Virus record (IMG/VR): IMGVR_UViG_3300044911_003339
Coordinates: 41,162-105,161 of that record
Direction: 5' to 3' (one strand)
DNA length: 64,000 nucleotides
From: a virus
The notes below the pieces were generated by a model. The model was not told the origin of the DNA and did not search any database. It worked only from the letters and a program-made list of their open reading frames with translations. Positions 2,500 through 58,938 of this stretch are shown in pieces. The position numbers were made by a program, and so were the translations under genes. Position 1 is the first letter of the stretch; every line of letters begins with the position of its first letter.

Positions 2500-4299
2500 A
2501 TGGGCCTGTTCGACAAGTTCAAGGATGGATTCGAAGCGCTCGCGAAGGCGCTCGGCGAATCCGAGGAAGACGGCGAGGACATCCCCTTCGACAAGATGCG
2601 GGATGCCCTCGTGCGTTCAGGTCTCGCGGAACCGACGGAGGAGAAGCCGCGCGCGCTCTTCCACGATCCCTACGCGGTCACGGACTGGGGAGGCTGGCGA
2701 GAGCGACCGTCGTCGATGACGTACGAGACGCTTCGCATGATGAGCGTGAAGAACACGGTCATCGCCTCCATCATCCAGATCCGGTGTAATCAGGTCGCGC
2801 AGTTCGGTCGGCCTCAGCAGGGCCCGTACGACAAGGGCTACCGGATCATCCCGCGCGACAGGCGGGACAAGAAGAAGGTGCTCACGCCCGCGGAGAAGAA
2901 GCAGGCCGCGGAGATCGAGCGGATGCTGGAGACGACGGGCTTCCTCCTGCCCGGCGAGAAGCCCGCGGATCGCGACAGCTTCCGCACCTTCTTGCGGAAG
3001 GCCACGCGCGACATCCTCACCTACGACCAGTGGGCGTTCGAGAAGATTCGCGACCGCAAGGGTCGCGTCTCGCGCTTCATCGCGCTCCCCTCAGAGAGCA
3101 TCCGGCCGGCGAGCGCGGACATCGAGCACATGGACGTGAAGTCCCTGCGCGAGCGCGTCTCGCACGTCCAGGTCTACGAGGACACGCCGATCGCCGAGTT
3201 CAGCCCCGAGGACATCGCGTGGTGCGTGATGAATCCTCGCTCCGACCTGCGCGCGAACGGCTTCGGCTTCTCGTACATCGAGATGCTCGTCTCGCTCGTG
3301 ACCGCGTGGCTCTACGGGTTCGAGTACAACCAGCGATTCTTCATGCAGGGCAGCGCCATCAAGGGCATCCTGAACGTGAAGGGCGCGATTCCCGATCGTC
3401 AGCTTCGTGCGTTCCGACGCATGTGGTATTCGATGGTCTCGGGCGTGAGCAACGCGTGGAAGACGCCGATCCTCAACAGCGAGGATCTCCAGTGGGTCCC
3501 GCTCCACGTGAACAACCGCGAGATGGAGTACGGGCAGTGGATGGACTGGCTCACGAAGCTCACGTGCGCCGTGTTCGGAATCGATCCCGTCGAGATCAAC
3601 TTCATCTTCGGCAACAGCGGGCAGTCGTCGTCGCTGAACCAGTCGCGCCCGAACGCGGCGGAGGTCCAGGAGTCGAAGGACAAGGGCCTCGTGCCTCTCA
3701 TGGACCACATCGCCGACAACCTGAACATGCACATCATCTGGGAACTCGCACCAGATTTCGAGTTCGCCTTCACGGGCTTCGACGCGCAGGCCGAGGAGAA
3801 GGAGCAGGAGGGTCGCATCAAGGCGGTCACGAACTACAAGATGATCGACGAGGTGCGCGCGCTCTACGAAGACGATCCGCTGCCGAACGGCATGGGCCAA
3901 CTGATTCTGAATCCGACCTACATGCAGTGGGCGATGCAGAAGGAGCAGGCCGCGATGGGCGGACCTCCCGGTGGAGGTGAGGGCGACATGGGCATGGGCG
4001 ATCCCGACGCGCTGCCCTCCACAGCACCGGGCAACGACGAGGAAGACCTCGCAGGGCCTCCCCAGAAGGGCCCGCCCAAGCCCGGCCAGCCCCCGAAGGG
4101 TCCGCAGGGCCCGCAACCCCCGAAGGGCGCGCAGAAGCCCCCAGGGAAGCCCTTCGGCTCCCCCGGTGAGGAAGCGCTCCAGGCGTCAGCCTTCGTCGAG
4201 CGCACGGCGCGTGGCATCCTCCGCAAGTCCCGCGTACACACGCGCACCGAAGGCGGGCGGGAAATCATCGACATCGAACTGCCGGAGGATCCGACATGA
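2500..4299 (+). CDS. Portal protein (SPO1/Twort-like)
   Basis: Motifs IIQIRCNQV..F, DILTYDQ..FE, NPRSDL..GFGFS.IE, YNQRFF.QG..KGIL, MEY..W...L...CAVFGIDP.EINF and SKDKGL.PL match Herelleviridae-type portals; RBS GAGGAG; Pro/Gly-rich C-terminal tail. Confidence 0.92.
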   Translation: MGLFDKFKDGFEALAKALGESEEDGEDIPFDKMRDALVRSGLAEPTEEKPRALFHDPYAVTDWGGWRERPSSMTYETLRMMSVKNTVIASIIQIRCNQVAQFGRPQQGPYDKGYRIIPRDRRDKKKVLTPAEKKQAAEIERMLETTGFLLPGEKPADRDSFRTFLRKATRDILTYDQWAFEKIRDRKGRVSRFIALPSESIRPASADIEHMDVKSLRERVSHVQVYEDTPIAEFSPEDIAWCVMNPRSDLRANGFGFSYIEMLVSLVTAWLYGFEYNQRFFMQGSAIKGILNVKGAIPDRQLRAFRRMWYSMVSGVSNAWKTPILNSEDLQWVPLHVNNREMEYGQWMDWLTKLTCAVFGIDPVEINFIFGNSGQSSSLNQSRPNAAEVQESKDKGLVPLMDHIADNLNMHIIWELAPDFEFAFTGFDAQAEEKEQEGRIKAVTNYKMIDEVRALYEDDPLPNGMGQLILNPTYMQWAMQKEQAAMGGPPGGGEGDMGMGDPDALPSTAPGNDEEDLAGPPQKGPPKPGQPPKGPQGPQPPKGAQKPPGKPFGSPGEEALQASAFVERTARGILRKSRVHTRTEGGREIIDIELPEDPT

Positions 4300-5070: not shown

Positions 5071-6885
5071 GTGGCTCGCGTACGCATCGAAGCCCCCGAG
5101 GGACTGGACCGACTGACGCTCGCGCAGATCGTCGTCGGTCCTCACCTGCTTCTGAAGTCCCAGCACGTCCGGCATGCCGGCGAGCGGACGTTCTCGCGCT
5201 ACGTCGCGCTCCAGGAGTTGAACGAGCACGTCGTGAAGTCGTTCGAGGAGACGCTGAAGCAAGCGCTGAAGCGCGCGGACGATTACATGCAGCGCACGGT
5301 GCTGCTCGCCGACGTGGGGCTGCGGAAGGCGGACGAGCACCTCCCCGCGTTCCCTCCGCTCTTCACGCCCGAGCAGATGGAGGCGGTGCGCCGCATCCTC
5401 ACCGATCACGTGCACGGCTTCATCGCGACGACCGTGGATCCGAATCTTCTCTCGCAGCACGAGGTCGCGCGCCTGATCGCCGAGGGAGTGATTCCCGCGT
5501 CGATGAGCTACGTGTTCCAGGCCGAGCCGGGGCAGGAGGCTCCTCTCGCCGAGGACTGGATCGGAGCGGCCTACACCTACGGCGCGATGCTCGGCTCGAT
5601 GCGAGAGGGCGATGACGCCGCCTACGTGAAGTCGCTGTCGTGGCCGACGTTCGCCAAGAAGCAGAAGGCACAGCCGCTCGTGCTGACCCCGCACGAGCAG
5701 GCCGCGCTCGACGTGGCGAAGCACAGCGCGGGCATCCACTGCCGCGGGCTCGGGAACGAAGTCGCCGACGACTTCTCGACGATCGCCATCGACACGGACC
5801 GCGCGCTGCGGAAGCGATTCGAGCACGAGATCCAGACCTCGACCGAGGCGAACATCGCGCGCCGCGACGCGTGGCGGAAGCTCGCGAGCGACCTCGGGCA
5901 CAAGACCGGGGACTGGGCGCGAGGCTTCGGGCGCATCGCCGCGACCGAGAAGCAGCGCGCGTTCCAGGAGGGATTCTCCACGACGCTGAAGAAGCGCGAG
6001 AAGAAGCGCCCCGAGGACGTGCGCGTCGCCAAGCTCCCGGCACCCGACGCGTGCCCCGACTGCGTGCGCCTGCACCTCACCGCAGGTCCCGGTTCCAAGC
6101 CGCGCATCTTCTCGCTCGCAGACCTGGAGGCCAACGGCTCGAACATCGGCGTGAAGCGCGCCTCGTGGAAGGCCGTCGTCGGGCCGGTGCATCCGTGGTG
6201 CGGGTGCGAACTCGTGCACGTGCCCGACGGCTGGGATTTCGACGACGAGAACAAGCTCATGCCCACGAAGCTCGAACGCAGCGCACGCCTGGAGGCGGAC
6301 CTGCGGAAGAGCGCGGACAAGCAGCGACACCTGACCTACAGGGAATCGGTTCCCGAGAAGGGCATCGTCGTTCGCGTCGGCGACCCGCTCACGCGAGCGG
6401 AGATCGACAAGGTGATCGCGCGCACGCCCGAAGTGCTGTTCGACCACAAGGTCGGCGTCACGCTCATCACGACCGATCTGCCGACGGTGCAGAACGTGCT
6501 CGACCCGCACGATCTCGCCTACTGGACGGGCAACGAGATTCGCCTCTCGCAGACTCTCGCGCCCGAGCGCGTGAACCTCGTGCTCATGCACGAGTTCGGT
6601 CACGCGCTGAACGTGTTCCTCTACCAGAAGTTCGACGAGAACACGGACCGCGTGCGCGCGTGGCACGACGCCCTGTTCGCCATCGCGAAGGTCGAGGGCT
6701 TCGTCTCCGATTACGCGACCCGCGAGCCGATCGAGAACGCAGCCGAGGTGACCCGGCTCTACCTCTACGACCGGCCGAAGCTCATGCGGGAGTTCCCGCG
6801 GCAGTTCGCCTTCTGCCAGAAGGACTACCGCGACATCCTCCCGCCCTGGAAGTGGAGGAACGATGGCGATTCTAAAGATCGCTGA
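5071..6885 (+). CDS. MuF/SPP1 gp7-like head morphogenesis protein with C-terminal zincin metallopeptidase
   Basis: RIAATEKQRA, CPDC and GPVHPWCGC (MuF HPxCxC motif); C-terminal HEFGH...FVSDYA....ENAAE zincin signature; GTG start after GGAGG. Confidence 0.85.
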   Translation: MARVRIEAPEGLDRLTLAQIVVGPHLLLKSQHVRHAGERTFSRYVALQELNEHVVKSFEETLKQALKRADDYMQRTVLLADVGLRKADEHLPAFPPLFTPEQMEAVRRILTDHVHGFIATTVDPNLLSQHEVARLIAEGVIPASMSYVFQAEPGQEAPLAEDWIGAAYTYGAMLGSMREGDDAAYVKSLSWPTFAKKQKAQPLVLTPHEQAALDVAKHSAGIHCRGLGNEVADDFSTIAIDTDRALRKRFEHEIQTSTEANIARRDAWRKLASDLGHKTGDWARGFGRIAATEKQRAFQEGFSTTLKKREKKRPEDVRVAKLPAPDACPDCVRLHLTAGPGSKPRIFSLADLEANGSNIGVKRASWKAVVGPVHPWCGCELVHVPDGWDFDDENKLMPTKLERSARLEADLRKSADKQRHLTYRESVPEKGIVVRVGDPLTRAEIDKVIARTPEVLFDHKVGVTLITTDLPTVQNVLDPHDLAYWTGNEIRLSQTLAPERVNLVLMHEFGHALNVFLYQKFDENTDRVRAWHDALFAIAKVEGFVSDYATREPIENAAEVTRLYLYDRPKLMREFPRQFAFCQKDYRDILPPWKWRNDGDSKDR

Positions 6886-9800
6886 TCTCGTGAAGAGCGG
6901 AGGTCCGTACATCGGGCCGAAGGGCGGTGTGTGGGCCGACCCGCAGCACACGGTGCCGTGGAAATCGGATCATGAGGACACCACCTCTCACTTGTTCCAC
7001 TCCACGCCCGCGTACGCGATGAGCCGGATCAAGCGGGAAGGTCTTGCTCCGCGCAAGGGCGCAGGTCTCTTCCAGCACGGCGGCTACGATCTGCACTCGC
7101 AAGGCAAGGTGTTCCTCTCGAACAACCTCTACGCGGCGAAGCAGTGGCACAGCAAGGTCGAGGCTCAACTCGAACACCACCACGATAATCCGAAGCACCA
7201 CGTTGCAGTCATGCTTCGTGTGAAGCCTCGGGAGACGCATCTCGACGATGTTGGAGACCGCGATGTGAGCGGCTCTCGCTTCGTGCGCGACGTTGTGCCT
7301 GCAACCGACATCGAGTTCTTCCACGAAGGTACGAAGCGCTGGAAGCCGGTGAAGGATTACAAGCACGGCACGCACGGTATCCCGGACGACCACTACGAAG
7401 CTCACGCGCCGCGCGACGAAGAGGCAGACGCCGCCGAGAAGGCCGCAGCGAAAGAGGCACGACGCGCGAAGCGCGAAGCCGAGGAGCAGGCGACTCGCGC
7501 GCGGCTCGCGGCGCTCCAGGAGGAGCGCGCGAAGCGCGAGGCTGCGGAAGCGCAGGTTCACTTCAGGGATTCTGACGAAGGCAAGGCAATCCTCACGCGC
7601 TGGAAGGGCCTCTCCCCCGAAGAGCGTCAGGCGAAGGCGAAGCGCATCCTCGACGCGCCCCGCCCTTTCCCCGGCGCTCCCTCGATGCTGTCGCTCGGGC
7701 AGCGAGGCGAGGTGTGGCGCGAAGCTCTCGGAGTCGATGAGAAAGGGAATCTCGTGAAGTCGCGATTCATCATCAAGGCAGGCCCCTCAGGTGGGGGTTG
7801 GATGCCGATCCCCGGAGGCCACCACGGAGGGCTTCGGCGACGACACGGCGCGGGCTGGGAGTACTGGTACCCGAACGGAGCCCCGCACTTCGTGCTCCGC
7901 GAGCAGAAGCACCCCGAGGAGCAGCACGGGCACGAGCAGATCGACCCGGAGCCCTCGCACTGGGCCCTCGTCACGCCCGGCCCCGGCCTGCCCCCGGTCG
8001 GGTGGACCGCGGGCGGCGTGAACCCGCACGACACGAAGACCCCCGTGAAGGAGGCCGGTGTCTCGGGGAAGCTCTACCGCATCAAGAATCCGCACATCCG
8101 AGAAGGCTGGGCGCTGCTCACCGACGTGCGCTCGGGCGAGGACCACATGGTCCAGCACGACCGCGTGATGCCCGTTCGGTGGCTTTCGCCCGAAGAGAGG
8201 GCTCTCCAGGGCTCTACAGAGCCTCAGGAGCCGTTTTCGACCTGGAAGCCAGGGGTGGGTCCCTCCAAGCGCCCGAGCGGCGGAGGGGCGTCTGAGGGCA
8301 AGCGGATGCCCTCCTTCCCCGACTCCCGAGCGCTGCCCGGAACCGAGACGCACAAGCTGGAGAACGGCGCGTACGTCTGGCGCAAGGTCACGCGGTACGA
8401 AGCCGACGAGGACGGCACCACTCGCAAGGTCGAGCGGCTCGCGCCTGGAATCCCCGACTCCGACAAGATCGCGCTCATCGCAGAGTACGAGGGCCTCGTC
8501 GCCAAGACGGCGAAGCGCGTGCGCAGCGCGTTCGGGCTCAGCGCCCGCCTCTCCACCGGCCCCGGTCAGCGCACGGTGGACGACACGCTCGTCGAGCTTC
8601 GGCAGGCCGGCGTGGAGGGTCTGCTCCACGCCATCGACAGCTATCGCCCCGTGGGCCCGTTTGCAGCGCACGCCCAGCAGTACGTTCGCGATTACGCGCG
8701 TCTCCACGCCGCACGGGAGTTCGCGGGAGGCATCGCGATCCCGCGGCGGCATGCGCGCCTGCTCTCGTCCTACATCGCGGCCCGCGCAGAGGCCGCGCGC
8801 GTGAGCGGAAGCCACGACCCGAGCCCCGAGGTGGTCGCGGAGTTCTGGAAGCCGAAGAAGCGGGACCTGCACTCGGGCCTCTCGCCCGAGGAAGGCGGAG
8901 GAACGATTCCTCTCGCTGGCTACACGCTGAAGCGCAAGACGACCTCGACCGATCCCGAGACGGGCAAGAAGAAGACGACCGTCGAGGGCGAGGACGTGGT
9001 GCAGCAGCCCGGCCGCCTGGAGTGGGCGCAGCAGTTCCACGCGTTCCTCGTCGGGCAGGGAGGCATGGCGGACATCGACGAGCAGGCCGCGCTGTTCCCC
9101 GGCCTCGGCGTCGGCACGGGGCTCGGCGCGGACGAGCGCATCGCCGTGCGCGAGGCGATGATGCGCGCGCTCCCTCCCGACGGGACGATCGTCACGGTCC
9201 AGGCGGGCCCGCAGGCCCAGTTCCGCGGCGAGACCTGGAAGGCGATCGACCTCGCCCTCGGGCTCTCGTCGGGCGATCCGCTGCCTCTCGACGAAGTGGT
9301 CCGTCGCGTGCCCGTCGAGGGATCGCGCGGAGGTGAGTGGAAGCGTCTCGGAAGCTCGCGAGCGCGCGCCGCGATCGAGGCGCTCATCCGCGACGGCCTG
9401 AACACGGTCGCGCGTCACCTGCGAGGCGACGAGGACCGAGCAGCGTCGCTCGCGCAGGCCCTCGTGACGAAGCTCGTGCCGACCGAGGCTCCGAAGGAGC
9501 GGCTCCCCACGATGCGAGAGCGAATCCGCGCTGCGATGGCCCGCATCACCCCGGCCGAGGTGCAGCGCTGGCGCGAGGAGACGCGAGCGCGCTACCCCGA
9601 GCGGCCCGACATCGGCCGACGGATGTCTCGTGTCACCGATTCCGAAGCGAAGCGCCGCATCGTCGAGGAGCGCATCGCCGCAGCCCCGCTCACGCCCGAG
9701 ATGCACGAGGCGATGCTCCGCACGATGACGGCGATTCGCCAGGGCGTCTCGGCCTCGGGCCAGAACGTCTTCGGCGTCGTGGACCCGAAGGGGTCGAAGA

Positions 9801-9976
9801 AGAGCCTGCGCGTGCACTCGCTCTCCAAGGCCGGCGACCACGGCGCGTCCGATTCGGCTATGGTCGGGGAGTGGCTCCGGTTCCCGGAGCTTTCGCGACT
9901 TCGCTGGGCGAGCGAAGATCCGCTCGTGCACGCTCCGACGATCGCTCGCGCACGGTTCGATTCCATCATCGGGTGA
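6863..9976 (+). CDS. Multi-domain head-module protein: ADP-ribosyltransferase (Tpt1/KptA-like) domain + sigma70-like domain
   Basis: ART-like LFHST...IKREGLAP...VFLS...MLRV...VPATDI at about 6990-7320. Sigma region 2/3 LIAEYEGLVAKTAKR...ELRQAGVEGLLHAIDSY...FAAHAQQYVR...IAIP...HDPSPEVVA at about 8460-8850. Region 4-like IDLALGLSSGDPLPLDEV at about 9240-9420. Confidence 0.75.
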   Translation: MAILKIADLVKSGGPYIGPKGGVWADPQHTVPWKSDHEDTTSHLFHSTPAYAMSRIKREGLAPRKGAGLFQHGGYDLHSQGKVFLSNNLYAAKQWHSKVEAQLEHHHDNPKHHVAVMLRVKPRETHLDDVGDRDVSGSRFVRDVVPATDIEFFHEGTKRWKPVKDYKHGTHGIPDDHYEAHAPRDEEADAAEKAAAKEARRAKREAEEQATRARLAALQEERAKREAAEAQVHFRDSDEGKAILTRWKGLSPEERQAKAKRILDAPRPFPGAPSMLSLGQRGEVWREALGVDEKGNLVKSRFIIKAGPSGGGWMPIPGGHHGGLRRRHGAGWEYWYPNGAPHFVLREQKHPEEQHGHEQIDPEPSHWALVTPGPGLPPVGWTAGGVNPHDTKTPVKEAGVSGKLYRIKNPHIREGWALLTDVRSGEDHMVQHDRVMPVRWLSPEERALQGSTEPQEPFSTWKPGVGPSKRPSGGGASEGKRMPSFPDSRALPGTETHKLENGAYVWRKVTRYEADEDGTTRKVERLAPGIPDSDKIALIAEYEGLVAKTAKRVRSAFGLSARLSTGPGQRTVDDTLVELRQAGVEGLLHAIDSYRPVGPFAAHAQQYVRDYARLHAAREFAGGIAIPRRHARLLSSYIAARAEAARVSGSHDPSPEVVAEFWKPKKRDLHSGLSPEEGGGTIPLAGYTLKRKTTSTDPETGKKKTTVEGEDVVQQPGRLEWAQQFHAFLVGQGGMADIDEQAALFPGLGVGTGLGADERIAVREAMMRALPPDGTIVTVQAGPQAQFRGETWKAIDLALGLSSGDPLPLDEVVRRVPVEGSRGGEWKRLGSSRARAAIEALIRDGLNTVARHLRGDEDRAASLAQALVTKLVPTEAPKERLPTMRERIRAAMARITPAEVQRWREETRARYPERPDIGRRMSRVTDSEAKRRIVEERIAAAPLTPEMHEAMLRTMTAIRQGVSASGQNVFGVVDPKGSKKSLRVHSLSKAGDHGASDSAMVGEWLRFPELSRLRWASEDPLVHAPTIARARFDSIIG

Positions 9977-9984
9977 GGTTCTCC

Positions 9985-10329
9985 ATGAAGAGGTTCTCCA
10001 TCGACCCCGCCACGCTGCCGACCACATGGCGGGTCGGGCGGCGTGTCGGCAATAGCGGGCTGGAGCACGCCTTCGATCTCCGCCGTCGGGATGACGGCGG
10101 AATCTCCATCTCGAACGTCGAGCACCCGCTCACGGAGACCGAGCGCACCATGCTGCTCTCGCACTTCGGCAAGGCGCGCGTCGTGACGATCGGAGGCGAG
10201 GCCGACAACGGCGCGCTCGTGACGACGATGCAGCGCCACGAGCCGGGGGAGATCGAGAACTTCGTGGAGGCGGTCTACTCGCTGCCCTCACCCTTCATGG
10301 TGATGCCGAACGCTCGGAGGGAGACATGA
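9985..10329 (+). CDS. Hypothetical protein (114 aa)
   Basis: ATG at 9985 after GAGGT, in the frame of track ORF 9337..10329; fills the gap and overlaps the next start (ATGA). Confidence 0.7.
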   Translation: MKRFSIDPATLPTTWRVGRRVGNSGLEHAFDLRRRDDGGISISNVEHPLTETERTMLLSHFGKARVVTIGGEADNGALVTTMQRHEPGEIENFVEAVYSLPSPFMVMPNARRET

Positions 10330-13300
10330 GCCGGTTCGTGATTCCTGCGCTCCGCGCCGCACTGCCGGACGCCCTGGCGAAGTCGTTCCAGCGAGGCCCG
10401 CTCGCGCAGCACAAGTACCTGAAGCGAGAGCCCTACTTCGTCGGGGGCAAGCTGCGCTGGAGGTACTGGTACGCGAGCGACGAGCTTCGCAAGCAGGGCA
10501 TGGTCGAGCACGACCCCGCGGGCGAGCACGAGCACCACCTGCTCGCGAACATCGCGGACATCTACGAGCACTTCAAGTCCGTGATCCGCTCGACTGCTGC
10601 GACCCCGACGACGGCGATCGAGGGAATCTTCCAGGCCGCGGTCGATGACCCGAAGGCGCAGCGCGTGCCACAGGTCGCGATGTCTCCGGCGTTCCAGGCG
10701 CAGCACGTTCAGCCGTTCATCGACGCAGAGGCGAAGGGAGCACCTCCCGAGGCGAGCCCGATCGTGCGCGTGCACGACGCGCTGGAGATGGTGCCCGACT
10801 ACCTCCTGAAGCTCGTGATGGGCGGGACGAAGAACACGAAGCACCCCGGCTACAAGGGGCTCGGCCCGTACCCCGGTCTCTCCGCGCTCGTGATGAATCG
10901 CCAGGAGGACGAGGGAGCGGATTACGCGAACACCGCAGGTTGGGCGCATCCGAAGACGGGCGAGCTTCACCTGCTTGGCGGCGGCTCGGGCAAGCACGGC
11001 AGCGATTCGAGCTACTCCTTCCTCGACGGCGGCGACCCTGCCACGGCTCCCACGCCGACGGACTTCAACGACGCGAAGGTGCATCTCGAAAAGGTCGTCT
11101 GGCACGAGCTTGGGCACCACGTGCACTTCACGCTGGAGACCGAGCAGCCGGACGTGATGGATTCGTGGAGGGACCTCTCGACGGGTCCGGGTCCGAAGCC
11201 GACGGCCTACGCGCACACGGCATGGTGGGAGGACTTCGCAGAATCCTTCTCGGGCTGCTTCGCGCTCCCGAAGGTGATGGCGATGCGCTGCCCCGAGCGA
11301 TACGACTGGATGCGACAGCACGTCCTGAAGTCGCTGCCCGAGAGGTCCGCGCTCCTGAAGATGTCGGACGAGGAACTCGCGTGGTGGAACAAGAAGAAGA
11401 CCACGCCGCCCGGCAAGCTGCTGATGCACCTGAAGTCGAACGCGCCCGCGCGTCGCTTCGGTGCCTACTACAGCGACAAGGACCAGTTCTTCACGGTCGG
11501 CAAGGGAGGGCGCACGGTCTACCTGCGCTTCGGTCCGTCCGAGCCTGATCAGGAGGACGGCTGGACGCAGGTCCCCTCGACCATCGACCCGGAGACCGGG
11601 CTGCCGGTCTACGACGCCGCCTACGGTCCGCGCTTCAAGGTGCAGGGCAACCTGAAGGAGATGTACGACGAGCGCGGGAATCCGCTCGACGACTTCCAGG
11701 CGTTCCTCTACCTCGGACAAGACGACCCCGAGGTGCAGAAGTTCGTCGCCGACACGATGGAGAAGTACGTCGCGACGTTGCCTCCGAACTCGCCGCAGCC
11801 GACGGAGTACGACGCGGTGCAGTGGCTCGCCGCGAAGGGCGGCGACGAGGCGAAGGCTCTGGAGACGCGTCTGCTCTCGTACAAGATGTACACGTCGCTC
11901 GGCTACAAGCGGGAGTCGGAGAAGATTTCCGCGAAGGAAGCCCACACGACGGAGAAGGAGCGCAAGCGAGTCGAGAAGGAGCGCGCGAAGGGCGGCACGG
12001 GCTACCTCGATCGCCACGACTGGGTTCCGGTCGAGATTCCTCGCTCGGAGTTCGTTCAGAAGTCGGGCACCTTCAAGTTCGACAACGTGCGACCCGCGGA
12101 GTACCAGCCGTGGCAGGCCCGCGAGTGGGATCCCGTCACGAAGACCTCGCGTGTGAAGACCGTCTACGACCCTGCGGCCGGCAAGGTGGTGCCCGTGCGC
12201 ACGGCGACGGTCTACGAGCAGGAGAACCCCGACGGCACGACGTTCCGTGTGACGGTCGCGGAGGGCGAGCCCTTCTCGATCGGACAGACCATCCTCGCGC
12301 CGGTCAGCGTGAAGCTGCCCGACGGTCGCATCTCGCAGGACTGGCAGCCCTACAAGCTGTCCGTCGAAGACGGCGAGATGACCGTCACGAACCTCGCGAA
12401 GAAGTTCCGCGTCGATCCTGAGGCGCTCCTTCGTCAGAATCACCGCTACATGCGCGGGCAGATCACGGACCCGATGCTCGCCGCGCTCCTCAACCCGAGC
12501 GGCGAGGTGATTCGCGATCAGTTCGATCTCATGCGCCTCATGAAGCTCGCGGCCGAGCAGCCCACGCCGCCGACCGCGTGGGTCAGCGTCCGGGGCAAGA
12601 CGGGCTCGATCGCTCACTTCAAGGTGAGCTTCGACGGCTCGGGCCCGCCGCGCGTCGAGGGTCGTCAGTGGGCCGCGAAGCTCGGGAAGGACCCGACCGA
12701 ACCCATCCGCCTCGATCAGATTCTCGGGAAGGACGACGAACTCATCGGCGTCGAGACCGTGCGCGAGCGGAAGGCGAAGGAGGTCAAGATCAAGCCGGGC
12801 GGCCTGGTGTGGGTCACCGTCAAGAATCACCTCGGCGACGCGAAGCGCGTGATGGCGCGCTACATCGAGAAGAAGTCGTTCGAGGAGAAGGGCAAGAAGA
12901 AGAACGCCCACGTCGTCCAGGTGCTCCCCGGTCAGGGCACGGGTCTGCCGAAGGACCGCGTGATCGTCACGCGCGTGAACAAGAGCGACGAGAGCCAGAT
13001 CCCCGGCAAGCCGGAGATTCGTCGGCGCTTCGTCGAGCCGATGCAGAAGGACGTGCTGCTCTACGCCGACGAGGTGCGGGTCGGCTCGGGCGACCGAGAC
13101 ACGAGCGGCGTGATCAAGATCCTCCCGCCGAAGAACGGCTCGGTCACGAAGGCGCAACTCGCTGCGATTCCTGGCGTGCGCATCATCGGACTGGAGAAGG
13201 CACGGAACAAGAAGGGCGGAGCAGTCACGGAGGAGCTTCCCGAGGGCGTCGAGCTTGCCATCTCGCCCCGTGACCTCCCGGCCTTCCGGGAGTACCTCGG

Positions 13301-16300
13301 CGGCTTCGTGATGGACGAGCGCGTCTCGTCCATGATGGACGAGCAGGCTGCCATCATCCGAGAGCGCGCGCTCCAGGTGACCGGAGAGGACTGGCCTCCC
13401 GCAGACCAGATCGTCGATGCGGACGGCAACGTGAATCCCAACGGAGTGCTGCGCGGCATGGTGACGGGCGCGATGGGCATGCAGCCCGGCGCGCATCGCA
13501 TCGAGGCGCTTCAGCGCGTCGCGATGAACAACGGTCGCCTCATCGCTGCGCACTTCATGGGCACGGGCAAGACCGCGTTCTCGATCGCAGCCGCGCAGAT
13601 GATGCGGAACCTCGAATCCCGCGAGCAGCCCGGCAAGCCGCACCCGAATCAGGTGAAGAAGAAGGTGCTCGCGCTCGTGCCGCTCAACACCGCGAACAAC
13701 TACGCCGACGAGGTGGAGGTGTTCACCGGAAGGCCCGCAACGATCATCGGCTCGGGCTCGCTCGCGGGCAGCGTGCGGATGTTCCGCATGCCGAAGGACC
13801 AGGGCCAGAAGAAGAACGAGACGCGCGAGGCGTTCATCGCGCGCTCGCTCGCCGCATGGAAGGCGGCGGTCAAGACCGACCCGACGCTGTGGAACCCGTG
13901 GGCAGACGATTCCCAGATGTGCGTCTGCCCCTACGAGTACTTCCGCGACAACGAGGAGTTGATGCGGGCCACGGAGATGTTCGACGGGCTCGTCGTGGAC
14001 GAGGCGCACAACATCGCACGTGAGAACGAACTCTCACGTGCGGTCGAGCGCTGGAATCCGAACATGAACATGTTCCTCATGCTCACCGGCACGCCCGTGA
14101 CGAACACGCTCGACGTGCTCCCGCGTATGGCGAGCCTCGTGAGCGCGGGCAAGGTGAACCTCGGCACGAAGCAGGAGTTCACGGAGCGCTACCTCGTCGG
14201 CTCGGCTGTCGCGAAGGGCGAGGGCGCGAAGAATCCTCCGAAGACGGACCTCAACCCGCAGCGTGCCGGCGAACTGGCGGCGATCATGCGTCCGCTCATG
14301 CACATCGCGACGACGCAGGACGTGAAGGGCAAGACGATGCCCGCGGTGCTGCTCGACGAGAACAAGCCCGCGCACATGATCGGTCAGCAGGCGCGCATGT
14401 ACCGACTCTCGATGGCGAAGTTCACGCCCGAGGAGAAGGCGGCGATCATCGAGAGCGGTGCGGTCGGCACCGACGAGTCGTACGCGCTCGATGACGAGGG
14501 TCGCCGCAAGATCGGTGTCGCTCGCTCGATCGCGAACTGCCTCGCCTACAAGGCACCCGACCAGCGTGAGAATCTCACGTACGAGTCGAAGAGCACCGAG
14601 GAGAAGAAGGGCAAGGTCATCGAGAAGACCGTCACCCGCGTCTTCTCGCTGCCCACGCACGCGATGATGACGACGAAGCGCCCCGAGGGCTGGGGCGGGA
14701 AGTGGCCGACGTTCTCGGAGGTCGAGAAGGGAATCGTCGAGCCGGGCTACTACAACGTGCTCTCGGAGTACTACGAGCGCCTCTTCGGCGTGACGTACGA
14801 CTCCGTGGAGGGCAAGCCCATCGCGAAGGAGATCCTGGACGGCGTGAAGCGCGGCGACTACGTGACGCCGAGCGGCGCGCCGTGGGGTACGGTCGTGAAT
14901 CCCGATTACGGCCCAGAGGGCATGATCTGTCGCGGCACGCTCGACCCGGTGACGGGCAAGATCGAGCCGCTGCGGAAGGAGATCGTCGAGAACGGGCAGA
15001 AGCGCGTCGTCGAGGTCAAGCCGGGCACGCGCTTCATCCGCGATCCGAACTCCAAGGCGGCGGGCCTCTTCTACCACGAGGATGACTGGAACTTCACCGG
15101 CCGCTTCATCGACTCGGGCGAGGGAGGCGGCGGCGAGGGTGGAGGCGAGGACGATCCGTCCGACCCGAAGCCCGCGTCTGCCGGCAAGCAGGCCCCGAAG
15201 GACCCCTCGCTCTCCATCCAGCGTTCGACGAAGCGCCGGAAGGAGCGAGAGATGTTCGACCTCGCGGTCACGGCGGGCAACGCGAAGAGCGACGAACTGG
15301 AGCAGTACATCCACAACGCGCTTCGCGACGACAACCTCGGGCCCGATCAGCAGTTCATCCTCTTCGGGAATCGCATCGGCTCTTCCTTCCGCACGATGGA
15401 GAGCAAGCTCCGCACGATGGGATTCCAGGACGTGAACGAAGCGCTCGGGCACCCCGAGTGGAGCACGGCCGAGGACAAGGCGATGATGCCTCGGAAGTTC
15501 TTCGTGACGTACGCGGGCAAGGGAGCAACGCTCGGCGACCGCGACATCAACTCGGAAATCTTCCGACAGAAGCTCGACCAGTTCGGCCACAAGACCGGGC
15601 AGTCGATGTTCGTCTTCCGCACGCTCAACGGCGGCACGAAGAAGCCACCCAAGGTCGGCGAGATGCGCGAGGGCTGGAGCCGTGGCCAGCGGAAGCGCAT
15701 CGCCGACGCTCTCGCGGAGCCCACGCGCAAGACGGCCGAGGGCAAGCCTGCGGGCCTGGAGGTGCCGATGCGCGTGACGAGCGTCGAGGTCGATGGTCGC
15801 ATCGAGCAGCGGTACCTCTACGAGTCGGACATGAAGCCGAAGGATCGCGCAGAGTTCCTCCGGCTGGAGAAGGAGCGCCGCGGCGCGGACAAGGCGCGCA
15901 AGCAGGCGATCGACGGCGAGATGCGCGCGCTCGCCGACCGCTACTGGAGCGACCGGATTCCTCTGTCCGATCACTACCAGTACGTGCTGAACAACACGCA
16001 GATCATGGTGGCGACCGACGCCGCGAACGTCGGCCTCAACTGGCCTGCTCCCAAGCTCGTCATGTACGACTCGCTCTTCTCGCCGATGGACGAGTGGCAG
16101 CGCATGACGCGTGCGGCCCGCATGCTCGACGCAGCGGTCACCGGACCCGCGAAGAAGTACGTCGAGAAGATCGACGCGAAGCTCTCCGAGATGGAGAAGC
16201 AGACCGGGCTGAAGGAGTACGGACCAGAATCTTCCCTTCAGGCGGTGCAGGACGCGATCGAGTCGCTCCCCGAGGACGAGCGCGCCGAGCTTCTGAACCT

Positions 16301-16961
16301 GGAGGGAGGAGGCCCCGATCAGATCGTCGAGGCCATCTTCAGCCGTCGCGCCATGGACAAGATCGCGAAGCTCCGCCCCGAGGTCGGCGCGCATCTCCGG
16401 CAGGCCGGCGCTGCGCCTGATCCCGATCGCCCCGAGATCCGCATCCGTCCATCGGCCATCCAGGAATCCGACGTGACGAACGAGATCATCCGCAAGCACC
16501 TCACGCCCTTCGAGCAGCGCGTGCTCCGAGGACGCATGTACCTCGTGGACGTGAAGCGGCTCACGACCTCGTGCGACGTGCCCGAGATGAAGTCGATTCG
16601 CATCGAAGACCCGATGACGGGCAAGAAGACCACGGTTCAGGTCCCGACCGGCAAGTGGTCGGTCGAGGCTCCGACGCAGGCCGAGCGAAGCCAACTCACG
16701 CAGGGCCGCATGAAGATGGTGCCCTACGAGAAGGCGATGAAGGCGTTCCAGAACGCGCAGCCGGTGAAGACCGACTACGACTTCCTCGTGACGCCTCGCG
16801 GGAGCGTGCGTAGCTTCTCGATCATGCCTGAGGAGATCGAGCGCGAGAAGGCGAGTCGCGCGAAGCGCGAGGTCGCGAAGCCGAAGCCCACGAAGACGAA
16901 GAAGTCGGAGAGCTACAGCCGATTCTTCATTCCAGCGCGAACCGCGCGCGGGGAGGCGTGA
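10326..16961 (+). CDS. Giant polyvalent protein: zincin metallopeptidase + SNF2/SWI2 (SF2) helicase/ATPase
   Basis: HELGH...TAYA....EDFAESF zincin; AHFMGTGKT Walker A; VVDEAHNI; LTGTP; ATDAANVGLN...QRMTRAAR (motifs V/VI); 2211 aa. Confidence 0.88.
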   Translation: MSRFVIPALRAALPDALAKSFQRGPLAQHKYLKREPYFVGGKLRWRYWYASDELRKQGMVEHDPAGEHEHHLLANIADIYEHFKSVIRSTAATPTTAIEGIFQAAVDDPKAQRVPQVAMSPAFQAQHVQPFIDAEAKGAPPEASPIVRVHDALEMVPDYLLKLVMGGTKNTKHPGYKGLGPYPGLSALVMNRQEDEGADYANTAGWAHPKTGELHLLGGGSGKHGSDSSYSFLDGGDPATAPTPTDFNDAKVHLEKVVWHELGHHVHFTLETEQPDVMDSWRDLSTGPGPKPTAYAHTAWWEDFAESFSGCFALPKVMAMRCPERYDWMRQHVLKSLPERSALLKMSDEELAWWNKKKTTPPGKLLMHLKSNAPARRFGAYYSDKDQFFTVGKGGRTVYLRFGPSEPDQEDGWTQVPSTIDPETGLPVYDAAYGPRFKVQGNLKEMYDERGNPLDDFQAFLYLGQDDPEVQKFVADTMEKYVATLPPNSPQPTEYDAVQWLAAKGGDEAKALETRLLSYKMYTSLGYKRESEKISAKEAHTTEKERKRVEKERAKGGTGYLDRHDWVPVEIPRSEFVQKSGTFKFDNVRPAEYQPWQAREWDPVTKTSRVKTVYDPAAGKVVPVRTATVYEQENPDGTTFRVTVAEGEPFSIGQTILAPVSVKLPDGRISQDWQPYKLSVEDGEMTVTNLAKKFRVDPEALLRQNHRYMRGQITDPMLAALLNPSGEVIRDQFDLMRLMKLAAEQPTPPTAWVSVRGKTGSIAHFKVSFDGSGPPRVEGRQWAAKLGKDPTEPIRLDQILGKDDELIGVETVRERKAKEVKIKPGGLVWVTVKNHLGDAKRVMARYIEKKSFEEKGKKKNAHVVQVLPGQGTGLPKDRVIVTRVNKSDESQIPGKPEIRRRFVEPMQKDVLLYADEVRVGSGDRDTSGVIKILPPKNGSVTKAQLAAIPGVRIIGLEKARNKKGGAVTEELPEGVELAISPRDLPAFREYLGGFVMDERVSSMMDEQAAIIRERALQVTGEDWPPADQIVDADGNVNPNGVLRGMVTGAMGMQPGAHRIEALQRVAMNNGRLIAAHFMGTGKTAFSIAAAQMMRNLESREQPGKPHPNQVKKKVLALVPLNTANNYADEVEVFTGRPATIIGSGSLAGSVRMFRMPKDQGQKKNETREAFIARSLAAWKAAVKTDPTLWNPWADDSQMCVCPYEYFRDNEELMRATEMFDGLVVDEAHNIARENELSRAVERWNPNMNMFLMLTGTPVTNTLDVLPRMASLVSAGKVNLGTKQEFTERYLVGSAVAKGEGAKNPPKTDLNPQRAGELAAIMRPLMHIATTQDVKGKTMPAVLLDENKPAHMIGQQARMYRLSMAKFTPEEKAAIIESGAVGTDESYALDDEGRRKIGVARSIANCLAYKAPDQRENLTYESKSTEEKKGKVIEKTVTRVFSLPTHAMMTTKRPEGWGGKWPTFSEVEKGIVEPGYYNVLSEYYERLFGVTYDSVEGKPIAKEILDGVKRGDYVTPSGAPWGTVVNPDYGPEGMICRGTLDPVTGKIEPLRKEIVENGQKRVVEVKPGTRFIRDPNSKAAGLFYHEDDWNFTGRFIDSGEGGGGEGGGEDDPSDPKPASAGKQAPKDPSLSIQRSTKRRKEREMFDLAVTAGNAKSDELEQYIHNALRDDNLGPDQQFILFGNRIGSSFRTMESKLRTMGFQDVNEALGHPEWSTAEDKAMMPRKFFVTYAGKGATLGDRDINSEIFRQKLDQFGHKTGQSMFVFRTLNGGTKKPPKVGEMREGWSRGQRKRIADALAEPTRKTAEGKPAGLEVPMRVTSVEVDGRIEQRYLYESDMKPKDRAEFLRLEKERRGADKARKQAIDGEMRALADRYWSDRIPLSDHYQYVLNNTQIMVATDAANVGLNWPAPKLVMYDSLFSPMDEWQRMTRAARMLDAAVTGPAKKYVEKIDAKLSEMEKQTGLKEYGPESSLQAVQDAIESLPEDERAELLNLEGGGPDQIVEAIFSRRAMDKIAKLRPEVGAHLRQAGAAPDPDRPEIRIRPSAIQESDVTNEIIRKHLTPFEQRVLRGRMYLVDVKRLTTSCDVPEMKSIRIEDPMTGKKTTVQVPTGKWSVEAPTQAERSQLTQGRMKMVPYEKAMKAFQNAQPVKTDYDFLVTPRGSVRSFSIMPEEIEREKASRAKREVAKPKPTKTKKSESYSRFFIPARTARGEA

Positions 16962-17495: not shown

Positions 17496-17555
17496 CGCTG
17501 CTGCCGGATTCGTGACACACCATGGACCGTGGCCTGCTCCCGTGTGGAGCACGAG

Positions 17556-17591
17556 AGGCGACCGAAGGAGAAATCCATCGGTCGCCTTTTT
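17556..17591 (+). terminator. Probable intrinsic terminator between the cargo genes and the protease/scaffold/capsid genes
   Basis: AGGCGACCGA (17556-65) / TCGGTCGCCT (17578-87), a perfect 10-bp stem followed by a T run. Confidence 0.65.
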
Positions 17592-17621
17592 CGTTCTCGG
17601 GTCGCAGATCGCGCGGACGCG

Positions 17622-18377
17622 ATGAAGACCTCTCCCCAGCGCAAGTTCAGCTTCGACTTCGATGTCGAGGTGTTCGAGAAGGCGAGCCCCGAAGGAACGG
17701 AGCGCCGCATCGGCGGAATCGTGTCCACCGATCACCTCGATCGTCAGAGCGAGGTGCTGCTTCAGGAGGGCCTGGACTTCTCGCCCTTCCTGAAGGGCGG
17801 GTGGTTCAACGACAACCACGAGTCCACGACGGACAGCGTGATCGGCTACCCGACGGCGGCCGAGCTTCGTCACCTGCCGGACGGCAGGAAGGGCTGGTAC
17901 GTCGAGGGCTACCTCCTGAAGACCGACCGCGCGAATCGGATCTGGGACCTCGCGACCGAGCTTCAGCGCTCGGGCTCGGGGCGCAAGCTCGGATTCTCGG
18001 TCGAGGGCTCGATCGCCGAGCGCGACCCGGACGACCCGAAGAAGGTCCGCAAGGCCGTCGTGCGCGAGGTCGCGATCACGAAGTGCCCGGTCAACACGAA
18101 CACCGCGCTGCACGTGCTGGCGAAGTCGCTGGCCGTTGGTGCGGGTGGGCCGCCCTCAGGGCCGACGGGTGACGCGAGCGTGCTCGCGCCCGAGGCTCTG
18201 GAGGGCGTGAGTCCCGCGCGCCCGAGTCCGAAGGACCCGAAGAAGCGCCGCAAGGTCAAGCAGCGGATGAACAAGTCCGAGGCTGTGGATTTCTTGCTGT
18301 CGGTTCGGCCTGGGATGTCTCGGGCGCTCGCAGAGCGCGTGGTCGAGTACGCGATTCGGTGGCACCCGGCCGCCTGA
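17622..18377 (+). CDS. Prohead (capsid maturation) protease
   Basis: IGGIVST..LDRQ.E...Q.GLDF..F...GWFN.NH, IGYPT, YVEG.L, LGFSVEG, VAIT..PVN are characteristic of SPO1/Twort-type prohead proteases; start chosen downstream of the terminator. Confidence 0.88.
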   Translation: MKTSPQRKFSFDFDVEVFEKASPEGTERRIGGIVSTDHLDRQSEVLLQEGLDFSPFLKGGWFNDNHESTTDSVIGYPTAAELRHLPDGRKGWYVEGYLLKTDRANRIWDLATELQRSGSGRKLGFSVEGSIAERDPDDPKKVRKAVVREVAITKCPVNTNTALHVLAKSLAVGAGGPPSGPTGDASVLAPEALEGVSPARPSPKDPKKRRKVKQRMNKSEAVDFLLSVRPGMSRALAERVVEYAIRWHPAA

Positions 18378-18392
18378 AGAGGAGAAGAGGAC

Positions 18393-19427
18393 ATGAGCGG
18401 AAGCAACGTCGAAGTGGACGTGAGCGGTCTGGAGGCCAGCCTGAACGATCTCGTGAAGGCAGCCGACGCGACCGATCTCGTCAAGGGCAAGGGCGCAGGC
18501 GGTTCGGTGAACCGGGACTACTCGGGTCACATGGACGAGCGCGGCAAGGTCGGCGGAGGTGCCGCGGGCAGCGGCGACATCGGCGGCATCGACGACATGA
18601 TGATCGGCAAGATGGGCGAGACCGCGATGTCGGCCCTCGCGTCGGCGGGCTTCAGCGCGCCGCAGATCGCCGCCTTCATGTCGGGCAAGGCCGCGGACGA
18701 GGACGAGGACGAGAGCGACGACGAGGACGAGAGCGACGACGAGGACATGAGCGGTCAGGCCGACGGCTCGTTCGTCTCGCACAACCGCCCCGAGCCGACC
18801 GGCAAGATGGCTCCTCCGATGCCGCCCTTCCGCGGCAAGGCGAAGAAGAGCGGCGCGGGCGAGGGCGAGCCCCTCAACAAGTCGCTCGACATGCTCCGGC
18901 AGGACCCGGACATCGGCGACGCGATCGACGTGTCGGCGTACCTGGAGGCCATGACCGCGCGTGTCGCCGAGCAGATCGACGGGCTCGCGAAGGGCGTCCA
19001 CGGCGCGCGCACGGAGCAGGCGCAGGTCAACCGCGCGATGGCCGCGGCACTCTGGCAGACCGGCAAGCTGGTGAAGAGCCAGCAGGCGATCATCCAGGCG
19101 CTCGGCGAGCGTCTCGGAATCGTCGAGGCGACGCCGGTCCCGCCGAAGGGCGTCCAGGACCCGCGTCGGGCTGCCGCGCTCGCGAAGGGATTCGCGGGCG
19201 AGGCGGGCGGGCCGGGCTCGCGTCAGATGAAGAAGAGCGAGATCCTCGGAGCGCTCTCCTACATGACGCTGGAGAAGGGCATCCGCGAGATCAACGGCCA
19301 GAAGACCTCCGAGGTCATCTCGCTGTTCGAGGGCGGCAACGTGATCGCCCCCGAGACCATCCAGGCGGTCGAGAGCTTCCTCCGCCAGAACCCGAGCGAC
19401 GCCGCGAAGGCGCTCTCGTACCGCTGA
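18393..19427 (+). CDS. Probable scaffolding protein
   Basis: Between protease and capsid gene; acidic low-complexity tract, coiled-coil segment, many LxK[S/A/G] sites. Confidence 0.72.
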   Translation: MSGSNVEVDVSGLEASLNDLVKAADATDLVKGKGAGGSVNRDYSGHMDERGKVGGGAAGSGDIGGIDDMMIGKMGETAMSALASAGFSAPQIAAFMSGKAADEDEDESDDEDESDDEDMSGQADGSFVSHNRPEPTGKMAPPMPPFRGKAKKSGAGEGEPLNKSLDMLRQDPDIGDAIDVSAYLEAMTARVAEQIDGLAKGVHGARTEQAQVNRAMAAALWQTGKLVKSQQAIIQALGERLGIVEATPVPPKGVQDPRRAAALAKGFAGEAGGPGSRQMKKSEILGALSYMTLEKGIREINGQKTSEVISLFEGGNVIAPETIQAVESFLRQNPSDAAKALSYR

Positions 19428-19497
19428 ACAACGTCTGGGCTCGCTCGGAAGTGATTCCGAGTGAATCCACCGAACCGAAGAGAGAAAGACCAGGATC

Positions 19498-47462: not shown

Positions 47463-47475
47463 AATCGTGTAAGAC
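47463..47475 (+). promoter_or_regulatory. Putative phage promoter element AATCGTGTAAGAC
   Basis: Exact copy at 58926-58938; both copies are intergenic and upstream of operons. Confidence 0.45.
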
Positions 47476-58925: not shown

Positions 58926-58938
58926 AATCGTGTAAGAC
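58926..58938 (+). promoter_or_regulatory. Putative phage promoter element AATCGTGTAAGAC (second copy)
   Basis: Identical to 47463-47475; intergenic, upstream of the AAA+ gene. Confidence 0.45.

Follow-up and report, generated by a model that had tools for sequence, protein, structure and literature searches.

A divergent sigma-70 module and a predicted ADP-ribosyltransferase fold in one head-cassette protein of an uncultured myovirus-like phage: a candidate virion-borne transcription factor

The IMG/VR virus record IMGVR_UViG_3300044911_003339 is 105,161 bp long and complete according to CheckV. Its final 64 kb (“the window”, to which positions refer unless marked as genome positions) carry all of their clear genes on the + strand. 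One of these, P0001 (ORF, or open reading frame, 6863-9976; 1037 aa plus stop), sits inside the head-morphogenesis cassette of a myovirus-like phage and encodes in one polypeptide a sigma-70 module that is genuine though divergent (regions 2, 3.0, and 4; aa ~535-860) and, as modeled, an ADP-ribosyltransferase (ART) fold (aa 36-179). The frame is a genuine coding frame, since GC by codon position is 0.70/0.52/0.83 and a Shine-Dalgarno sequence (GGAGGA, 6854-6859) lies 5 nt ahead of the ATG. The best explanation is that P0001 is a phage polyvalent protein, a multi-domain cargo made late with the head proteins and combining an ART fold with a sigma core. The gene and its parts are:

6863..9976, + strand: P0001, putative polyvalent head-module protein (GC at third codon positions 0.83; Shine-Dalgarno sequence)
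6863..6967, + strand: N-terminal tag (aa 1-35) with predicted protease site DLVK|S (aa 8-12, nt 6884-6898)
6968..7399, + strand: predicted ART-fold domain (aa 36-179; from relatives, alignment, model, Foldseek, and VIA)
7400..7780, + strand: charged, Ala/Glu/Arg/Lys-rich linker (aa 180-306), ending in predicted cleavage sites
7748-7780, + strand: predicted sites NLVK|S and FIIK|A at the linker end (aa 296-306)
7781..7879, + strand: junction tag G.GGW.PIP.G..GG.RRR.G.GWEYWYP, a predicted beta-hairpin (aa 307-339)
7958..8215, + strand: small beta-barrel, Tudor/KOW/SH3-like (aa 366-451; strands at model residues 96-142)
8465..8878, + strand: sigma-70 regions 2.1-2.4 and 3.0 (aa 535-672; from profile, hhalign, and model)
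8879..9124, + strand: variable insert and putative region 3.2-like segment (aa 673-754; low to moderate model confidence, pLDDT)
9125..9439, + strand: sigma-70 region 4 with two beta-hairpin insertions (aa 755-859; from profile, hhalign, and model)
9440..9817, + strand: helical and beta-sheet C-terminal domain, conserved in relatives (aa 860-985)
9818..9973, + strand: predicted site SLSK|A (aa 986-990) and a 48-aa C-terminal peptide

As a single sequence P0001 has no Pfam or PHROGs match (Pfam E ≤ 0.1), and the Protein Data Bank (PDB) returns noise or weak matches. It falls below the curated Pfam and NCBIfam thresholds for Sigma70_r2, r3, and r4; the NCBIfam SigF model gives a weak match (E = 0.018, 14.7 bits against a 261-bit cut-off), and 3 of 13 relatives match Pfam Sigma70_r2, at E values of at least 0.011. 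These missed thresholds show divergence, not absence of homology, and the sigma module has gone unannotated until now because individual members of the family barely touch the Pfam models.

With a family profile, the resemblance to sigma factors goes far beyond chance. Alignment A3 (13 sequences) combines P0001 aa 515-880 with the corresponding segments of 12 relatives, and its profile matched 54 PDB sequences. Nearly all are sigma factors (over 40 solved entries), the best being Bacillus subtilis SigA at E = 1.4e-11. Two stretches align co-linearly and in the correct order: A3 positions 60-154 with SigA 161-255 (regions 2.2 to 3.0), and positions 235-283 with SigA 298-345 (region 4). Against a bona fide sigma70 with Pfam r1_2, r2, r3, and r4, hhalign gave 94.5% probability (E = 7.4e-8) over 182 columns spanning regions 2.2-4.2; the same protein was recovered at E = 4.4e-5 from among 5.8e9 proteins.

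An AlphaFold model of the core (aa 299-1037, built from 21 sequences) has a mean pLDDT of 72.6, with 84-94 over sigma2-3.0. The best Foldseek matches to the whole core model are sigma factors in holoenzymes (E 0.01-0.2), with a high root-mean-square deviation (rmsd) because the domain arrangement differs from that of holoenzyme sigmas. Taken separately with the exhaustive aligner VIA, from which all Z scores given here derive, sigma2 matches Escherichia coli sigma70 (1sig_A, Z 7.8, rmsd 1.5 Å over 76 aa), RpoS region 2 (5h6x_B, Z 8.2), and a sigma2/-10 DNA complex (3ugo, Z 6.5); sigma4 has its own matches at Z 5.1-6.0, among them SigD4 (3vep_D, 6.0), SigA region 4 (6ono_B, 5.8), and 4g6d_A (5.8, rmsd 2.3 Å over 62 aa). 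All three regions had been proposed from the letters of the sequence in an initial annotation, and every sigma and ART residue that it quoted is present in the translation where it had been placed. Its region 4 resemblance holds at both the profile and the fold level, and its description has to be extended by the two beta-hairpin insertions.

The signature motifs follow the same order: LIAEYEGLVAKTAKR at aa 538-552 (nt ~8474), ELRQAGVEGLLHAIDSY at aa 578-594, FAAHAQQYVR at aa 600-609, IAIP at aa 624 (nt ~8732), and IDLALGLSSGDPLPLDEV at aa 795-812 (nt ~9245). The core-binding motif of region 2.2 is well preserved (ELRQAGVEGLLHAIDSY, compared with DLIQEGNMGLMKAVEKF in SigA). Region 3.0 is clear (IAIPRRHARLL...DPSPEVVA), with the alignment running through IRIPVH...PTPEEIA of SigA. 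In regions 2.3/2.4, the F and R of the SigA alignment are kept, Y is replaced by H, and the tryptophan pair WW by QY, replacements that we take to be Y430 to H, W433 to Q, and W434 to Y in E. coli numbering. Other alternative sigma factors likewise do without the tryptophan pair. The segment between regions 3.0 and 4 (aa 673-754) differs in length among relatives, and its position suggests a region 3.2-like element. A complex prediction for sigma2-3.0 with E. coli beta' residues 220-350, run without controls, scored 0.24 (mark 0.32) and is evidence neither way.

The ART-fold domain was recognized through its relatives: aa 36-185 have 132 among 1.84 billion cluster representatives, many of them single-domain proteins of ~180 aa and many others inside giant proteins. 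P0001 has H46-S47-T48, I56..EGL.P63, and VFLS84-87; residues conserved in the family include H46, T48, G60, L61, F84, W95, D128, and G131, and the consensus (alignment A5) reads LYH.T....I...GL.P...GGY..HS.GKVFL...W...SDDP..VPVVLR...D.LG..D..S..V..IPP..IE..G.W.P. The NAD-binding histidine of strand 1 is present: H46, within LYH.T, is at least 90% conserved in 46 relatives and aligns with the YHGT motif of Tpt1. Against the PDB, the ART profile matches Tpt1/KptA at E = 4.5e-4, over a 29-residue beta1-alpha1 motif. Pfam matches are scattered and weak among the domain's relatives (PARP, Tox-ART-HYE1, PTS_2-RNA), with no significant PTS_2-RNA match in P0001 or the 46 domain relatives; ART-PolyVal (PF18760, H-Y-D) is likewise unmatched by P0001 and all 46, and is approached by one long relative at E = 0.02.

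The model of this domain is confident (pLDDT 93.6). Foldseek places KptA/Tpt1 first (E = 4e-4, prob 1.0), followed by pertussis and cholera toxin A, pierisin, and DarT, and ARTs fill at least the first 20 places among the structural matches. With VIA, the matches include KptA (Z 7.9, rmsd 2.4 Å over 84 aa), TreX (7.4), and DarT1 (7.3, 127 aa), and all 23 matches at Z ≥ 5 are ARTs or ART-like folds (including DUF952). The invariant D128 falls in a loop of the model. The Tpt1 match is confined to the C-terminal NAD lobe (KptA chain residues ~90-180). Tpt1/KptA enzymes have in addition an N-terminal RNA-binding lobe, which holds their catalytic Arg-His-Arg-Arg tetrad; in P0001 this lobe is absent, the 35 residues ahead of the ART domain being a short tag. 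The ART call stands for the fold and, at the sequence level, only for the beta1-alpha1 NAD motif, and the label “Tpt1/KptA-like” was dropped as too specific, because the NAD lobe alone is matched and no conserved Glu is seen at the third catalytic position.

The junction tag at aa 307-339 is near-invariant in P0001 relatives and present as a single copy in this genome. A tag of this kind (~30 aa) also recurs at module starts of giant ORFs in many unrelated viral contigs (L010, L015-L030), with up to three copies per protein (three in one 3066-aa ORF of L023), and a tag resembling P0001 aa 4-38 recurs in other giant phage ORFs. Both may be packaging, ejection, or DNA-binding tags. The beta-barrel has weak VIA matches to Tudor, KOW, and SH3 domains (Z 5.0-5.6); the ESM Atlas has no match for aa 340-530 or aa 855-1037. 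The C-terminal peptide, with consensus P.LTRL....D.LA.APT.AR...E.LLG, is conserved in relatives, and could possibly be a capsid- or scaffold-docking signal.

P0001 contains the protease-type sites proposed for it: DLVK|S at aa 8-12, LVK|SRFIIK|A at aa 297-306, and SLSK|A at aa 986-990. They are conserved in relatives, whose N-termini follow M.....ADL.K[AS] and whose junction consensus is LLK.A; K989 is at least 90% conserved. The junction and C-terminal sites lie in disordered linker segments, with pLDDT below 50 (core-model residues 1-7 and 684-698). Similar sites occur in the head proteins encoded nearby. In the capsid protein, h-x-K-[SAG] occurs just once, at aa 26-29; the N-terminus of this protein (19498-19590) carries a conserved L[RN]K|AL[FY]AG, the L[RN]K|AL being found in five relatives (loci L003-L006, L024), and this is likely a propeptide cleavage site that removes ~28 aa. 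The scaffold has 10 h-x-K-[SAG] sites, 2.9 per 100 aa, or six-fold the ~0.5 expected by a rough estimate from amino-acid composition, and DLVK, as at the N-terminus of P0001, occurs in it twice. Together, the sequences of the capsid, scaffold, and P0001 sites would fit a prohead protease cutting after Lys. Site density was given up as an argument for cleavage, as h-x-K-[SAG] is not enriched in P0001 overall; the argument therefore rests on position and conservation only.

The initial annotation placed P0001 within a head module, and the flanking genes bear this out, with the portal on one side and, farther along on the other, genes for a prohead protease, scaffold, major capsid protein, and tail sheath:

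169-2463, + strand: 764-aa protein with a zeta-toxin/AAA_33 kinase domain (Pfam 2.7e-20)
2500..4299, + strand: portal (Pfam Phage_portal 1.5e-21, phrog_12 1e-50)
between portal and p604, upstream of P0001: 254-aa protein (p254)
5071..6885, + strand: 604-aa protein (p604) with a weak HExxH zinc-peptidase-like C-terminus; conserved upstream neighbor (synteny)
10326..16961, + strand: 2211-aa SNF2-helicase giant; conserved downstream neighbor (Pfam SNF2-rel_dom, phrog_62, synteny)
17529-18377, + strand: prohead protease
18393-19427, + strand: putative scaffold
19498-20922, + strand: major capsid protein (Pfam SU10_MCP)
26894-29164: tail sheath

The protease/scaffold/capsid block (17529..20922) was called by phrog_1028 (4e-50) and phrog_752 (4e-87), and the capsid protein is ~35% identical to those of SPO1-like Bacillus phages. 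A MuF domain had been expected in the gene next to P0001; Pfam did not recover one. In the 764-aa zeta-toxin/AAA_33 protein, h-x-K-[SAG] occurs 13 times (1.7 per 100 aa); this protein is likely a further cargo enzyme of the head cassette. The SNF2 giant has an SNF2/ResIII helicase core and always directly follows the sigma-core gene; its N-terminus carries a tag, HKY..R...G.LRWRYWY, after ALAK|S. Between the terminase and the window (genome 34043-40262) are five ORFs of 238-766 aa with no Pfam or PHROG match, two of which (294 and 386 aa) have similar C-termini.

Among the 5.8 billion proteins searched, P0001 has 15 relatives. All align to P0001 ~300-1037, a core of ~740 aa, and their N-termini differ: InPase (PF18823) is found in 11 of the 15, S-adenosylmethionine (SAM) lyase in three, and DUF3293 in three. 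Within the family profile, the InPase part aligns with the C-terminal end of a phage portal of known structure (9b41_L, E = 4e-29). A constant core with exchangeable heads (ART, InPase, SAM lyase) suggests that these proteins have a delivery chassis in common. Several unrelated domains in one polypeptide, with N-terminal shuffling on a constant core, are one mark of polyvalent proteins, and encoding in a head-morphogenesis/portal neighborhood is another; both were found here. The P0001 family is classed as polyvalent-like because such shuffling is the hallmark described by Iyer et al. (2017; PMC5512222).

In IMG/VR there are 33 loci, 14 of them with the core. The survey of homologs for the same synteny next to the portal, which the initial annotation had suggested, shows the gene order to be kept: portal, (p254), p604, sigma-core gene, SNF2 giant, p101, protease, scaffold, capsid is common to the 14 viral contigs, as far as each contig reaches and down to 22% identity. 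A free-standing sigma module was not found, the shorter forms (141-702 aa) being fragments from short contigs. Near-identical DNA occurs in wastewater “RNA-Seq” runs (where the material is probably DNA), one biofilm metatranscriptome, and one third study; these matches indicate presence only, and expression and transcript starts cannot be read from them because they exist as contigs.

No phage RNA polymerase was found in this genome, and a promoter-like element was. AATCG[T/G]GTA[A/G] (AATCGKGTAR) is present in 13 copies on the + strand and one on the -, against 0.08 expected. Two copies are in the window (47463-47472 and 58926-58935, +), and 11 further ones lie at genome positions 681-27208 (L035, L036), among replication genes. 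They are 8-28 nt ahead of gene starts; because several are only 8-9 nt ahead of the ATG, these promoters may give leaderless mRNAs. A 95%-identical relative (G001) has seven forward copies and no reverse ones. The exact sequence is absent from four other relatives (G002-G005), the shared part being a shorter core, ATCGKGTA, with variants within the clade (AATCGTGTAA vs. CATCGGGTAT). One of these, G003, is complete (100 kb) and has a sigma core of 33% identity. An unbiased screen of its 9-mers put CATCGGGTA at the top (11 on the + strand, none on the -), and its 16 forward copies of ATCGKGTA are confined to the part upstream of the head cassette, most of them a short way before gene starts. No conserved -35 partner was found for the ATCGKGTA element. 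It would put TA at -12/-11 with six specified bases upstream, a region 2.4/3.0 layout; it resembles an extended -10 element and therefore fits a sigma having regions 2 and 3.0. AATCG[T/G]GTA[A/G] probably serves as a phage promoter.

The window ends with a second sigma-like gene:

62561-64000+ (runs off the window and contig end): P0146, extracytoplasmic function (ECF)-like sigma (Pfam Sigma70_r2)

P0146 scored 26.5 bits with Pfam Sigma70_r2 in the genome search, has a long, Ala/Lys/Pro-rich, histone-H1-like tail, and sits 3.6 kb downstream of one AATCGKGTAR copy; relatives G003 and G004 have counterparts of ~725 aa. It was ruled out as a paralog of the P0001 sigma module (hhalign probability 0.2%). 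At the genome ends, the first 50-100 bases of the contig reappear near its end, within an AKP-coding repeat (genome 1-200 and 104846-105161), and the record may be circularly permuted or self-overlapping.

If P0001 is cargo, its proposed course would be as follows. It would be incorporated into the prohead and cut there by the prohead protease at the h-x-K|[S/A] sites, giving an ART fragment (~aa 12-299), a sigma fragment (~aa 307-989), and the 48-aa C-terminal peptide. The fragments would leave the capsid together with the DNA; the sigma fragment would join the host RNA polymerase core and direct it to phage promoters before any phage protein is synthesized, and the ART domain would modify a host target. 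As for the promoters, the leading candidate is ATCG[G/T]GTA, a strand-specific element upstream of early and replication genes. What the analysis establishes is the domain homologies, the gene context, the conservation of the sites, and the existence of the promoter-like motif; ejection, core binding, promoter recognition, and ART activity are inferred. Packaging is supported circumstantially, by the conserved synteny and by fusion partners of polyvalent type, including the InPase also found on a solved portal; so is cleavage into modules, by conserved sites in linkers of pLDDT below 50 and by a motif that stands at the capsid propeptide position and is enriched in the scaffold. The initial annotation thus keeps its sigma module, its ART fold in the same polypeptide, and its head-cassette position, and loses its Tpt1/KptA label. 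The whole sequence of packaging, cutting, injection, and immediate promoter takeover is given about an even chance of being correct.

Several observations weigh against that sequence of events. There is no P0001 relative among 50,697 GenBank phages, and so no cultured one, and none in 185,579 species genomes (two pattern-limited scans). The residues for -10 melting are kept only in part in the sigma module, and region 4 carries its two hairpin insertions. In the family alignment of the ART domain, a conserved catalytic Glu is not seen in the [SA]-x-[YF]-[VT] strand 5. Over its full length, P0001 has 0.48 h-x-K-[SAG] sites per 100 aa, which does not exceed the chance level. Finally, ATCGKGTA could be read by the P0001 sigma, by the ECF-like P0146, or by a host sigma, and presence or absence cannot pick among them because G003 and G004 also carry the second sigma.

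Some of these same features would suit a sigma module that is delivered in the virion and serves for docking on RNA polymerase, or as a decoy, and not for initiation. As a decoy, it would bind the host core, displace the host sigma, and shut off host transcription; as a docking device, it would tether the entering DNA or co-delivered enzymes to the polymerase without specific promoter recognition. The best-conserved stretch of the module is indeed the core-binding segment of regions 2.1-2.2 (ELRQAGVEGLL.AI..Y), the tryptophan pair for -10 melting is lost, region 4 has insertions, and the variable N-terminal partners (ART, InPase, SAM lyase) suit a common delivery or docking chassis. However, regions 2.4/3.0 of sigma2 and the helix-turn-helix of sigma4 are retained across relatives of 20-35% identity, which would be superfluous for a pure core binder, and something has to read the promoter-like element that is specific to the phage; docking or a decoy function is considered rather unlikely. 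A role still further from initiation would be structural, with the sigma fold condensing DNA inside the capsid and unconnected to RNA polymerase. Internal head proteins often bind DNA, P0001 is basic in places (the RRR tag), and the single sequence misses the Pfam thresholds. Yet conservation follows the functional regions of sigma and not the fold alone (the 2.2 core-binding motif, F/H/Y/R of region 2.3, IP..H of region 3.0, L.LGL of region 4.1), and the module co-occurs with host-directed enzymes, making this very improbable.

P0001 might also not be packaged at all, acting instead as a late sigma or sigma-like regulator in the producing cell, for example on late genes, and merely being encoded within the head operon. 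Phage sigmas for late genes are well known (T4 gp55, SPO1 gp33/34), and P0001 itself is known from sequence alone. What such a regulator would not call for is the strictly conserved position between portal and protease, the fusion to domains known elsewhere from a portal and from polyvalent proteins predicted to be injected, or the conserved protease-type sites at the module borders; a stand-alone form was not found, only fragments (141-702 aa), and the phage already has a separate, ordinary sigma gene. Action in the producing cell alone is accordingly thought quite unlikely, and a packaged, protease-released sigma factor remains the preferred reading.

Parts of this arrangement have counterparts in known systems. 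Like Group 1/2 sigma-70 factors (SigA/RpoD, RpoS), P0001 has co-linear regions 2.1-2.4, 3.0, and 4.1-4.2, and its best sequence matches are B. subtilis SigA and RpoS; unlike them, its module is embedded in a 1037-aa head-module protein, has no region 1.1, has a 12-aa insert between 2.1 and 2.2 and a long variable insert before region 4, has two hairpins in region 4, and has the tryptophan pair of region 2.3 replaced. Like phage sigmas (T4 gp55, SPO1 gp28 and gp33/34, those of jumbo phages; PMC7824862), it would redirect the host polymerase to promoters lacking a -35 element, but those are small, free-standing, and made after infection, whereas the P0001 sigma is fused into a head-cassette cargo. 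A parallel in strategy is offered by the N4-type virion RNA polymerase polyvalent proteins (PMC5512222), in which a large, virion-associated multi-domain transcription device, in some cases fused to an ART, is likewise predicted to start transcription on entry; these are complete single-subunit polymerases, while the P0001 sigma must borrow the host core.

For the ART domain, T4 Alt is a similar case, an ART-fold enzyme that travels in the head and acts on the host at entry, as is predicted for P0001. Alt belongs to the R-S-E clade, however, while the P0001 ART has a strand-1 His and shows no conserved Glu, and its nearest structures are the NAD lobe of KptA/Tpt1, DarT, and TreX. Tpt1/KptA and DarT share with it the beta1-alpha1 motif LYH.T....I...GL.P and the ART core fold; of KptA, P0001 covers residues 90-180 only.

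A virion-borne sigma module, or one in a polyvalent protein, was not found described in the searchable literature (mostly without subscription journals), which agrees with the statement of the initial annotation that none was known. Iyer et al. (2017; PMC5512222) catalog 131 domains in polyvalent proteins, predict their packaging and injection, and discuss a jump-start of transcription by the N4-type virion RNA polymerase and its ART fusions (Roseovarius Plymouth podovirus 1); the word “sigma” appears nowhere in the text. A review of jumbo phages (PMC7824862) handles phage sigmas as ordinary gene products only. This phage may bring into its host, within the virion, a promoter-recognition factor of its own, something not described before in the literature searched. 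More tentatively, and with considerable doubt, this may be the strategy of a whole clade of ~100-kb uncultured myoviruses from wastewater and biofilm metagenomes: a capsid-borne sigma, released by proteolysis, would with the host core read ATCG[G/T]GTA at time zero, launching the early and replication genes as well as an ECF-like sigma for later genes.

Phages are known to obtain their first transcripts in two ways, by promoters for the host sigma or by bringing a complete RNA polymerase of their own (N4, phiKZ, and crAss-like phages). A virion sigma, if true, would be a third solution to this “first transcript” problem, and a cheaper route, because one small module would reprogram the host enzyme ahead of all phage gene expression. 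The polyvalent-protein domains cataloged so far would gain a “promoter-specificity factor”, the private single-element promoter of these genomes would be explained, and there would be a compact sigma/promoter pair that is orthogonal to the host's own and works with the host core enzyme.

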